IMG/VR virus record: IMGVR_UViG_3300021963_000022
Source: a virus
Taxonomy: Duplodnaviria; Caudoviricetes
Reading direction: 5' to 3' (one strand)
Length of the DNA stretch: 64,000 nt
The position numbers were made by a program, and so were the translations under genes. The notes under the pieces are model-generated. The model had not been told where the DNA came from, ran no database searches, and saw only the letters and a list, made by a program, of their open reading frames with translations. Positions 30,892 to 37,509 of the stretch are shown here, piece after piece. Numbering within the stretch: position 1 is the first letter of the stretch; each line of letters starts with the position of its first letter.

Positions 30892-31062
30892 ATTATCTCA
30901 CAAATGCCTGAAAGTAATATGTAGTTGGGTTTAATGCATACCAACTACGAACCACACTGACACCACCTTGCGGTTGCCAGCCTTCAGACAATAATTCTGC
31001 TACTAGTTTATGAAATTCATCATAACTAGCATTTATAACCTTATACTCTGTTATCATAACTT

Positions 31063-31147
31063 TGGTGCTCCAGGTCGGACTCGAACCGACACGCCTTTCG
31101 GCACTGGCTTCTAAGACCAGCGTGGCTACCAATTACACCACCAGAGC
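31063..31147 (-). tRNA. tRNA-Leu(TAG)
   Basis: Long variable arm, loop CT-TAG-AA, CCA. Confidence 0.95.
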
Positions 31148-31279
31148 AATTAAACTTTTTAAAGAACATACATAGTATATAACAATAATCATATACTGTC
31201 AAACATTTTGGGTTAGAAGAACTCAGACGTATAATAATCATTTACCGGTTAGTTATCACAGAGGTCCAAGCCTTGTTAT

Positions 31280-31355
31280 TGGAGCGGGAGGCGAGAGTCG
31301 AACTCGTCTATTTCTGCTTGGAAGGCAGACGTGTAACCAAAAACACTTCACCCGC
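31280..31355 (-). tRNA. tRNA-Gly(TCC)
   Basis: Loop CT-TCC-AA, CCA; 5' end overlaps the stop of the GIY-YIG gene. Confidence 0.9.
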
Positions 31356-31890
31356 GTTGATCCTTTTCTTGCCATTTTTTCTTAATAGCATCTGATATCT
31401 TTCTTTTATGTTCTTCTGACTTTGGTGGTCTTGATTTATATTTTGTACCTAATTTAGATTCTGAAATATTCATACGAACTTCATCGGTCATTTTAGGTGC
31501 TGTACCATTCTTACGTCTTGCAATCAAGACTTCTGACAACCTATCTCTGGTTTCTTGACTATGGTGTTTACCTAACATCTTAGGCATACCCGACTTGTTT
31601 ATATAATCGAAGCCACCAAAACCACCTCTACGAATATTGTAAACATCTTCCCTTAATAGGAATTCATCATTTACAAGTTCTTTTTCCCTAGCAAACATTT
31701 CTTCTGCTGTATCAAAATATTCTAAAATATCTTTTTTAAAATTTTCAATTCCATATTTGTCTTTTGCATAATTTAAGATTTTACCGGATCCCATGTAACC
31801 ATCATTTAAATTCTTAGTTTTATGAGTGCCTATATAAATTTTGTTGTCTAACAAATTAGTAATTTGGTATATGTAATAATAGTATTTCAT
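31348..31890 (-). mobile_element. free-standing GIY-YIG homing endonuclease with NUMOD3-like motif
   Basis: YIYQITNLLDNKIYIG; NUMOD3-like GKHHSQETRDRLS; ATAAATA upstream. Confidence 0.9.
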
Positions 31891-31913
31891 ACATTTATTT
31901 ATCAATAATGTGT

Positions 31914-31944
31914 AATCTGCTGTTTTACCACTATACGAACCCCG
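31914..31944 (-). pseudogene. 5' fragment of a tRNA-Gly-like gene
   Basis: GCGGGTTCGTATAGTGGTAAAACAGCAG; acceptor 5' strand plus D-arm-like sequence only. Confidence 0.55.
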
Positions 31945-32125
31945 CTCATAAATACTTTATGCATACATATGACGCTATCACAGCTACGGGATTATTGATA
32001 CACTTATCAATGACCGACGATGCTGTGTGTTACATCCTTGTACACAATTTACAATCCAATACAACTGTAATAAAATTTTTTACCAATATTGAACCGGCAT
32101 TAGATTTTATTCATTCATTGTAATT

Positions 32126-32202
32126 TGGTGCGCCCACCTGGATTTGAACCAGGGACCAACGGCTTATGAGGCCGCTGCTACTAACCACTGAGCTATAAGC
32201 GC
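32126..32202 (-). tRNA. tRNA with CAT anticodon, Ile2-like body
   Basis: Loop CT-CAT-AA; D- and T-arm sequence resembles E. coli tRNA-Ile2; isotype not certain. Confidence 0.85.
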
Positions 32203-32245
32203 ATGTTCTTATTATATATCAATTAAGATATGTTGTCAATTTATT

Positions 32246-32338
32246 TGGTACCCCCGCCGAGAGTCGAACTCGGATGAACCAATTATCTGTTGCTTACGGG
32301 ATATAAATCCGCCGTTTTAACCATTAAACTACAGGGGC
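32246..32338 (-). tRNA. tRNA-Ile(TAT)-like with long variable region (93 nt)
   Basis: Acceptor GCCCCTG/CGGGGGT, loop TT-TAT-AT, ~22-nt variable region, canonical T arm, CCA. Confidence 0.75.
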
Positions 32339-32343
32339 AATTA

Positions 32344-32826
32344 TTACTTCATAGATTGTACAAATTCAGTAGAACCTATCGTATACCATGCACCATCTAC
32401 TTGCCATCTTACGTTTGGTATCTTTCCTTGCAGGTATTGCATTATAATATAAGACAATAGTTTTGAATCCATCTTTTGACCCATTTCTATAAGATTGAGA
32501 AAATAGTGTCCATGCTGTTCACTAACATTCATCAATACTTTAGATTGACTAGGTTTCATCCATTCAGGAAATATTTCTGGATGCATTAACCATGCACATT
32601 TATAAGATACGCAAGGATTTTCAGGTCTATCATTGTATATTGTACAGCCATTACTACCTTTGTAATGGCAAGGCATTCCGTTAAAAAAATGGTGACCGTA
32701 TGCTTCACCGCTTAACCAACCTTCACAACATGCGGTACAACCATCACATTTTCTATCTATAACAGGTTTAGTTTTCTCTAAAGTGTTAGCATCAACTATG
32801 GGAATTGTTTTCTTTTTTTTAGACAT
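32344..32826 (-). CDS. YkgJ-like Cys-cluster (Zn/Fe-S) protein
   Basis: CDGCTACC and CTIYNDRPENPC..C motifs. Confidence 0.75.
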   Translation of the reverse strand: MSKKKKTIPIVDANTLEKTKPVIDRKCDGCTACCEGWLSGEAYGHHFFNGMPCHYKGSNGCTIYNDRPENPCVSYKCAWLMHPEIFPEWMKPSQSKVLMNVSEQHGHYFLNLIEMGQKMDSKLLSYIIMQYLQGKIPNVRWQVDGAWYTIGSTEFVQSMK

Positions 32827-32862
32827 GCATTATTTATATAGTGCAAGCATGCCTGATAATTT

Positions 32863-33129: not shown

Positions 33130-33147
33130 ACAACTATTTATATAATT

Positions 33148-36888: not shown

Positions 36889-36978
36889 TGGAGGAAGATA
36901 ACAGAATCGAACTGTCACCTATTCATCATAAGTGGGACGGTTTTCAAGACCGTGTCCGCGCCATGCAGCCTATCTTCC
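36889..36978 (-). tRNA. tRNA-Ser(TGA)
   Basis: Loop CT-TGA-AA, long variable arm, atypical D-arm, CCA; 5' end overlaps the HNH stop. Confidence 0.88.
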
Positions 36979-37422
36979 ATTGTTTCTATTTTTAGACTTA
37001 TATGTAGGGAGTTGCGAATCGCAATTACTACACACAAATCTTAAATTTTCTAAACGATTGTCATTATTAATCCCGTTAATATGGTCAAGTATTAACGGCA
37101 TTGGTTTATCTTGCCATTCAGGTCCTATATTACAGCAAGCACATTTGTACTCTATTAAGTTTTTTGATTTTATTCTTGCTTTAATACTATGCCGTGCATA
37201 TGTAGAATTTTCACAAAACACCTCTGCATCGGGATATAATATATCCCATTTAGCATGACGCCCTAATTTTTTACCTGTATTCCAAGCAATATGTCCTTTT
37301 TGTGCTCCTGCTTTAGCTGAATGCTTGTGTTTAATTTTATTTGGATTACTATGACATGACATTTCATGTGCTTTTAGCGATCCTTTGTTATTTATTTCTC
37401 TGTTACAATGTGGGCAGTTCAT
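36970..37422 (-). mobile_element. free-standing HNH homing endonuclease
   Basis: CPHC zinc knuckle; LILDHINGINNDNRLENLRFVCSNCDSQ HNH motif; ATAAATA and AGGA upstream. Confidence 0.9.
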
Positions 37423-37473
37423 AATAGTTTCCTTACTCTTATTTATGCTTTATAGCAATAATTTGACATTTTG

Positions 37474-37503
37474 ATGCTATAAACCTGACTCTGCCACGTT
37501 TCC
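37474..37503 (-). pseudogene. 5' fragment of a tRNA-Ser-like gene
   Basis: GGAAACGTGGCAGAGTCAGGTTTATAGCA: acceptor strand plus Ser-type D-arm, then sequence breaks off. Confidence 0.7.
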
Positions 37504-37509
37504 ATAATA

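Follow-up and report, generated by a model that had tools for sequence, protein, structure and literature searches.

In the tRNA array of an uncultured phage, a homing endonuclease gene is joined to a divergent tRNA-Gly(UCC) gene immediately behind the broken-off start of an older tRNA-Gly gene. We consider it likely that the endonuclease gene and its tRNA together form a mobile cassette, which would cut a tRNA gene and bring along a spare to replace it. The window analysed here, a stretch of 64,000 nt, comes from an uncultured freshwater (lake) jumbo phage; among the contigs that carry an identical nuclease gene, the longest has 347,736 bases, and a megablast search against cultured phages returned one tRNA-Leu match only. 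Every element of the originally predicted layout is present, on the minus strand: a 5' fragment of tRNA-Gly (hereafter the stump), an ORF with GIY-YIG and NUMOD3 domains, and a complete tRNA-Gly(UCC).

The minus strand of the window holds 27 tRNA genes, and perfect or near-perfect sigma-70 consensus promoters split the array into units. One such promoter (TTGACA-17-TATAAT, 12/12 consensus match, 32239-32211) heads the unit formed by tRNA-Met(CAU) (32202-32126), a spacer of about 180 nt (31946..32125), the stump, the endonuclease gene and the new tRNA-Gly. The neighbouring gene, also on the minus strand, encodes a protein of 160 aa (32826-32344). The next sigma-70-like promoter (11/12, 31174..31202, minus strand) heads tRNA-Leu(UAG) and is also found in the related contig L243; it forms the right edge of the disturbed region.

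The ORF encodes 180 aa and is intact. It matches the GIY-YIG domain PF01541 (28.2 bits, cut-off 22.6), and after the catalytic domain the NUMOD3 motif PF07460 (27.6 bits, cut-off 20.4); it also matches PHROG 314, 'homing endonuclease', with an E-value of 2.5e-47. In an alignment of 12 sequences that included homologs, the YIY...KIYIG motif, one Glu and one Asn were invariant, and the window ORF keeps the motif residues. The best matches from cultured phages, 43-46% identical, bear annotations as SegD, as Seg-like or simply as homing endonuclease. On both sides the ORF adjoins tRNA sequence and no protein gene, and it is a predicted free-standing Seg-like GIY-YIG homing endonuclease gene. As originally predicted, its end overlaps the new tRNA by 8 nt (ATG at 31890, stop ending at 31348, tRNA at 31355-31280, minus strand), and the UGA stop codon occupies tRNA positions 6-8.

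The distance from the stump to the ATG is just 23 nt. The conserved left-end motif ACACAT (31913-31908, minus strand) is followed by GATAAATA (31896..31903, minus strand), which is TATAAATA with one mismatch and ends 5 nt 5' of the ATG. A T4-late-promoter-like motif is kept at the position of GATAAATA in every cassette copy, and the left-end motif (CACA..., then TATAAATA) is also common to members of the nuclease family that follow complete tRNAs. TATAAATA itself is depleted in the window, where 13.9 copies would be expected and 4 occur. Of these, the copies at 32831-32838 and 33135-33142 (minus strand) precede the start codons (ATG at 32826 and 33129) of two small ORFs by 5-6 nt, and GATAAATA is similarly placed before the endonuclease gene. 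This arrangement suggests that TATAAATA may be a T4-late-type promoter that gives near-leaderless mRNAs.

The stump was present on the minus strand as predicted, with a corrected start: it begins at 31945 instead of 31944 and reads GCGGGG TTCG with four G, one of which had been dropped earlier. It spans the acceptor strand, the D arm and the 5' strand of the anticodon stem (31912..31945), and matches intact tRNA-Gly alleles through tRNA position 33 (31914), positions 34-35 (31913-31912) being ambiguous. The generic Rfam tRNA model, run on the stump in context or on a range cut at the stump end, gave no match at E-values up to 10. A tRNA-Gly profile built from 21 distinct intact alleles was run over the 64 kb window, and its positions 1-34 matched 31945-31912 with 30 of 34 bases identical and an E-value of 2.3e-6, the second-best match in the 64 kb, which excludes chance as the source of the stump. 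The expectation that the fragment would align to tRNA-Gly models therefore held for a tRNA-Gly-specific profile and failed for the generic one, which misses this 34-nt piece. On the new tRNA the same profile reached positions 48-74 only (E 0.041), so the stump and the new tRNA are not copies of each other.

Intact alleles of the stump type are common. The intact allele was predicted as an exact 21-mer (end of the D arm, anticodon stem and UCC anticodon), and a scan of metagenome contigs placed this 21-mer in at least 120 stretches; among the matches listed, nearly all were intact 74-nt phage tRNA-Gly(UCC) genes of one family. Exact-pattern scans of IMG/VR for the stump, for the 3' end of tRNA-Met and for the 3' remnant of the related locus L020 (described below) returned 0 matches each.

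Relatives with the same gene order were found through homologs of the neighbouring 160-aa protein (79% identical), which led to contigs L243 and L242. L243 has the order tRNA-Trp, 160-aa gene (79% identical aa), 93-nt tRNA-Ile(UAU), tRNA-Met, spacer of about 180 nt, tRNA-Gly(UCC), promoter and tRNA-Leu(UAG). It lacks the endonuclease gene, and the intact tRNA-Gly(UCC) at L243:2183-2256 begins at the first base of the stump and is identical to it over nt 1-21 (alignments A3 and A4). The prediction that an endonuclease-free relative would carry an intact tRNA-Gly at this locus was thereby borne out at the exact position, and the nuclease gene shows a presence/absence polymorphism in which the contig without it has an intact candidate target. 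In L242 (1756-2430) the same spacer is followed by a stump ending at position 33, by CATAAATA, by an unrelated 190-aa ORF with a weak PD-(D/E)XK match (E 0.11), and by a different tRNA-Gly(UCC) that the ORF end overlaps by 15 nt. Conservation of the spacer in L243, which has no endonuclease, and in L242, which has another putative nuclease, anchors the synteny; in alignment A3 nearly all of the 85 columns preceding the tRNA-Gly start are conserved between the window and the syntenic relatives. Three allelic states can be assigned to this one site: empty, occupied by the GIY-YIG cassette, and occupied by a cassette with another putative nuclease.

L243 is a relative at 79% identity and lies outside the population of the window phage. 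Every contig with an identical 160-aa neighbour carries the nuclease gene, and none within the population has the empty allele; the nuclease is fixed in its own population, so ongoing homing is not seen there. BLAST of the window's array against the 120 metagenome tRNA-Gly loci listed found shuffled tRNA order and no syntenic site, and IMG/VR scans with the neighbouring 160-aa and 546-aa proteins yielded distant loci or short ones that end before the site.

Other features of the array were also conserved or variable among these contigs. The spacer of about 180 nt is noncoding yet strongly conserved in L242 and L243, and may be one of the array's conserved non-tRNA RNAs. The 93-nt tRNA-Ile(UAU) (window 32246-32338, minus strand), with an insertion of about 20 nt in its variable region, is kept in both relatives. 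Contigs L011-L018, otherwise near-identical, carry an extra 143-aa ORF between tRNA-Leu(UAG) and tRNA-Leu(UAA), near 30892-31062; the ORF is absent from the window and represents another presence/absence polymorphism in the tRNA array.

The window arrangement was recovered in at least 23 independent contigs (ENA, JGI, NCBI) and is not an assembly artefact for that reason. Nucleases 85-89% identical to that of the window stand beside different tRNAs in L020, L021/L022, L157/L158 and L159-L162, and each of these loci has the stump, ACACAT, ATAAATA, the ORF and the same overlapping tRNA. The unit of stump, leader, ORF and tRNA therefore occurs in at least five unrelated tRNA-array contexts. When segments of the window were compared with L020, L021, L157 and L159, identity was 81-93% for stump plus leader, 85-87% for the ORF and 99% for the tRNA (86% in L161, with compensatory changes), and dropped to 45-56%, the random level, in the 60-100 nt of flank on either side. 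More distant members (L153-L156 and L163/L164, 68-73% identical aa) keep the layout with a canonical-looking replacement tRNA-Gly and a junction one or two bases later. The L021 copy has lost its ATG (ATA), indicating that some cassette copies are decaying.

The layout extends to other isotypes. At 80 IMG/VR loci that encode homologous nucleases, about 30 of the ORFs end 1-51 nt inside a downstream tRNA, which may be Gly-UCC, Gly-GCC, Asp, Asn, Trp, Val, Gln, Thr or Arg. Firmly matched stumps agree with the downstream isotype in five of five anticodon classes: Gly-UCC (many loci), Gly-GCC (L167, L190, L206), Asp (L171), Trp (L179) and Val (L186). The best matches off isotype were both weak, that of L153 to tRNA-Thr through a shared D arm and that of L173 to tRNA-Ile with an E-value of 0.007; by eye, both stumps are tRNA-Gly-like. 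In a quick tree of the nucleases, a clade of 10 that includes the window's (SH-aLRT 95) consists entirely of Gly-UCC cassettes with stump and overlapping tRNA.

Nucleases of other families stand in the same kind of arrangement, in agreement with the suggestion of a recurrent strategy. Inspection by eye of another part of the window (36889-37505, minus strand) shows a tRNA-Ser-like 5' fragment, an HNH gene (37422-36970) with CATAAATA upstream of it, and a tRNA-Ser(UGA) that the HNH gene overlaps by 9 nt. The 190-aa putative nuclease of L242 is a further case, beside the stumps for five anticodon classes.

Two loci from the wider search are recorded here for their own sake. An unannotated homolog (45% identical aa) in Aeromonas phage Ah1 (L239:1196-1886; MG250483.1), a cultured member of the Straboviridae, has an ORF that ends inside tRNA-Gly(UCC), and no stump; this phage could serve as a laboratory model. 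At L070:3015-3090 lies a hybrid pseudo-tRNA in which the common tRNA-Gly(UCC) makes up the first two-thirds and, from the T loop on, tRNA-Pro provides the 3' end; this hybrid is a recombination scar at the site that SegB-type enzymes are known to cut, and an intact T4-like tRNA-Gly lies 220 nt downstream.

The recurrence of the whole block bears on a rival reading, which we judge unlikely: an ordinary free-standing Seg endonuclease sits between tRNA genes, the stump is an unrelated recombination scar, and the downstream tRNA belongs to the phage and is not cargo. A chance neighbourhood of this kind does not explain why stump, leader, ORF and tRNA are conserved as a unit in unrelated contexts with a sharp drop in identity at both ends, why the junction falls at the same tRNA position across copies, or why each detectable stump matches the isotype of the downstream tRNA; nor does it account for L243, where exactly one intact tRNA-Gly replaces the entire block. 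The reading takes its strength from the heavy shuffling of tRNA arrays, where further scars occur (the tRNA-Gly/tRNA-Pro hybrid in L070 is one), from the many homologs that follow complete tRNAs with no stump, and from the unusual tRNA type found without a nuclease. SegB itself promotes tRNA gene rearrangement and amplification, according to one study (PMC13096335).

The replacement tRNA (31280..31355, minus strand) scored 44.5 bits against Rfam RF00005 (gathering score 29) and was called Gly(tcc) by ARAGORN. The odd D loop and stem mismatches noted at the outset were confirmed: it has A8/U14, a GUGU-ACAC D stem, a U-rich D loop, and non-standard pairs at 6:67 (U6:U67) and 49:65 (A49:C65), and so has neither the canonical U8/A14 nor fully paired acceptor and T stems. 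A8 and A49:C65 are traits of its whole family; U6:U67 is confined to the window's subclade, and relatives pair U6 with A67. T67 is present in the common old allele, and the U6:U67 mismatch may be a recombination scar.

Across cassette copies the tRNA is 99% conserved against 86% for the ORF, and within the new-tRNA family compensatory double changes affect 10 of the 20 predicted pairs. Taken together these two patterns argue for a working tRNA, and they indicate that it is under purifying selection. Contigs from four metatranscriptome runs cover the stump and spacer, the ORF, the ORF end with the tRNA, and the tRNA; as RNA-library contigs, with no joints, they show neither transcription nor transcript ends.

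Members of the new-tRNA family also occur with no adjacent nuclease (L225, L206, L187, L207), so the tRNA type is not exclusive to the cassette. At L184:1600-2533, a decayed piece of the nuclease (aa 48-102, 76% identical) lies upstream of a tRNA-Gly(UCC) of the unusual family, a case of nuclease loss after fixation. The nuclease-free tRNAs and this decayed piece fit the usual gain-and-decay cycle of homing genes.

The overlap of the two genes involves the tRNA core. A8 is the third base of the nuclease stop codon, U6-G/A7-A8 giving UGA or UAA (window 31348-31355; L182, L225 and others); cassettes with the canonical type of tRNA have their stop at U8-A9-A10 or later. The tRNA core may have been shaped by the gene overlap.

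The stump had been described as an old 5' fragment; it is local sequence in its first part only. Its nt 1-21 equal the local allele, which is intact in L243 and L070, and its nt 17-33 equal the common L116/L021-type allele, which was found in more than 100 contigs and is also the stump type of L021 and L159; the stump of L021 is exactly the first 33 positions of this common allele. The switch between alleles in the window stump starts from the GGTAA of the D loop that both share. Two allele types therefore meet in the D loop of the window stump, which makes it a chimera: its remainder comes from the tRNA-Gly type of another phage, and the left crossover of the window cassette fell in the D loop. 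It follows that the cassette brought along a portion of a stump formed earlier in a different phage.

The stump might serve a function: within the tRNA precursor it could direct the processing of the endonuclease mRNA or stabilise it, or it could act as a decoy. Such a function might be read from the 100% stump identity between the window and L020, whose ORFs differ by 14%, and from the D-arm part that stays intact even in decayed stumps such as that of L153. Conserved source alleles and gene conversion during homing would explain this identity equally well. Stump length also varies from 21 to 35 nt, internal deletions or duplications occur in L163, L180, L186, L190 and L242, and the predicted fold of stump plus leader is unremarkable (z -0.04). 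We find it improbable, to a slightly greater degree than an ordinary Seg neighbourhood, that the stump is kept for a function; that it is what remains of a displaced gene is the reading followed below.

The 3' end of the displaced gene is clearest in L020, where the new tRNA is followed by a clean remnant of 26 nt, 26/26 identical to the 3' end of the intact allele in L070; the acceptor strand of this remnant pairs perfectly with the L020 stump. The original prediction had found no 3' remnant in the window. No clean one exists there, and the 75 nt that follow the new tRNA (31279-31205, minus strand) are tentatively assigned as what is probably a heavily decayed one. This tail is not in L243 and is homologous to the tail of L242 (no shuffle reached the score). 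The L242 tail is collinear with old tRNA positions 18-67 (shuffle p 0.001); compared alone with the old tRNA, the window tail gave a shuffle p of 0.8. An unusual fold of the tail 31279-31205 was not found. As two unrelated nucleases share both the tail and the stump site, one cassette may have replaced another at an already occupied site.

In most loci the last tRNA position kept in the stump is 33-35, and the L020 remnant resumes at 46-49, so that positions of about 36-45 are always lost. This interval brackets the putative cut and points to the anticodon arm. We also rejected a variant in which the nuclease provides only a new 5' half that is joined to the old 3' half: the 3' strand of the new tRNA's anticodon stem pairs with its own 5' strand and not with that of the stump.

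A junction in the anticodon loop is also the classic site of bacterial tRNA group I introns, and the automatic JGI name of the homologs is 'group I intron endonuclease'; the endonuclease could on this account reside in a self-splicing intron, with the stump as exon 1. We regard this as very improbable. A ribozyme core would not fit into the 23 nt from stump to ATG, after which the ORF continues into the next tRNA; no intron family matched the nuclease region at E-values up to 10, nor did any group I intron or ribozyme in 31000-32400 at the same limit. A 3' exon that pairs with the stump is absent, and the L020 remnant lacks positions 36-45. The RNA contigs, being without joints, speak weakly in the same direction. 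Insertion by an integrase was rejected as well: the sole ORF in the insert is the GIY-YIG gene, and the stump and the new tRNA are dissimilar, with no identical att duplication.

We favour the following course of events for the cassette. Its starting point is a free-standing GIY-YIG gene of the Seg type, which has a late-type promoter motif of its own and is physically fused to a divergent tRNA-Gly(UCC), such that the ORF ends within the tRNA. The most likely target of the enzyme would be the tRNA-Gly(UCC) gene that phages ordinarily carry, cleaved in the anticodon arm or close to it, and repair of the break would copy the cassette in, leaving the first 33-35 nt of the old gene as a dead stump. 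The cassette's own tRNA, presumably uncut, would restore the supply of tRNA-Gly(UCC). Phage tRNAs are conserved in sequence but not in their order within the array, and for this reason the stump, together with any 3' remnant, could then serve as a short portable homology arm for entry into tRNA-Gly genes in unrelated arrays.

Homing endonucleases are thought to persist in needed genes by means of self-splicing introns or inteins, or to reside between genes. The locus would represent a third route for an RNA gene, in which the target is destroyed and a replacement, presumably resistant, is delivered. At this site free-standing homing would take a new structural form, and the empty allele, the two different filled ones and clear footprints of transfer document it. 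The three natural allelic states offer a testable model for the reshuffling of tRNA arrays, for the divergence of phage tRNAs from the canonical form, and for a minimal natural cleave-and-rescue drive.

Whether the locus stands for something wider is a more tentative matter. It is possible, at somewhat less than even confidence on our part, that phage tRNA arrays harbour a general and so far undescribed class of natural 'home-and-rescue' gene drives, made up of endonuclease-plus-spare-tRNA cassettes. If so, GIY-YIG, HNH and PD-(D/E)XK-like nucleases would be rivals for a given tRNA site and displace each other there; tRNA stumps used as portable homology arms would make homing independent of genomic context; and the turnover and diversification of phage tRNAs would be driven by these cassettes, including the A8 that forms the nuclease stop codon.

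Several known systems resemble parts of this arrangement. One of the closest is SegB of T4, a GIY-YIG homing endonuclease encoded in a tRNA cluster, which cuts tRNA genes at the T-loop motif GGTTCRANTCC and ensures that its tRNA region is inherited (PMC2330249). According to a 2026 study, SegB homologs are statistically over-represented in the 1 kb around tRNAs, and this holds for many isotypes; the study also notes microhomology between the 3' end of segB and the 5' end of a tRNA, and a search of it for pseudogenes or isotype-matched fragments turned up neither stumps nor same-isotype replacement (PMC13096335). A literature search for truncated tRNAs or tRNA pseudogenes combined with homing endonucleases returned nothing relevant. 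The association of SegB with tRNAs is already published, and the layout of stump, nuclease and replacement was not found in the literature searched; our analysis extends the reported clustering of SegB homologs and tRNAs (PMC13096335) with its fine structure and a proposed mechanism. Like SegB of T4 and T6, the window nuclease belongs to the GIY-YIG family and is free-standing within a phage tRNA array, and it is 43-46% identical to the Seg proteins of cultured T4-like phages. SegB carries neighbouring tRNA genes along by co-conversion. Unlike segB, the window gene is nested in a broken tRNA gene, of which it leaves a stump of the same isotype, and is fused by overlap to a divergent replacement tRNA with the same anticodon.

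Integrase-type elements also enter tRNA genes and restore the gene from the attachment site, and a recombinase element of Caldiarchaeum lies beside a 5' fragment of tRNA-Thr (PMC3293823). These share with the cassette a mobile element in a tRNA gene, a fragment beside a functional copy, and a junction in or near the anticodon loop. The only protein of the cassette is a homing-type nuclease, with no integrase or recombinase, and the cassette supplies a complete and very different tRNA where integrase elements supply an identical duplicated segment. Homing endonucleases encoded by group I introns are known from bacterial tRNA genes (PMC3984707); they likewise occupy the anticodon-loop region and leave tRNA function intact. 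In the cassette, which has no ribozyme match, function would be kept by a spare gene instead of by RNA splicing.

The mORFs of fungal mitochondria, first described for atp6 of Allomyces macrogynus, carry a replacement gene end (PMC3630166). As described there, they too are intron-less endonuclease insertions into a needed gene that bring a foreign, divergent copy of the displaced part and reduce the native part to a decaying duplicate; what they replace is limited to the 3' ends of protein genes and is joined in frame. The cassette of the window differs in belonging to a phage, in supplying a whole RNA gene downstream, and in leaving the 5' end as the surviving piece of the displaced gene. The mORFs are the nearest conceptual precedent for the phage cassette.
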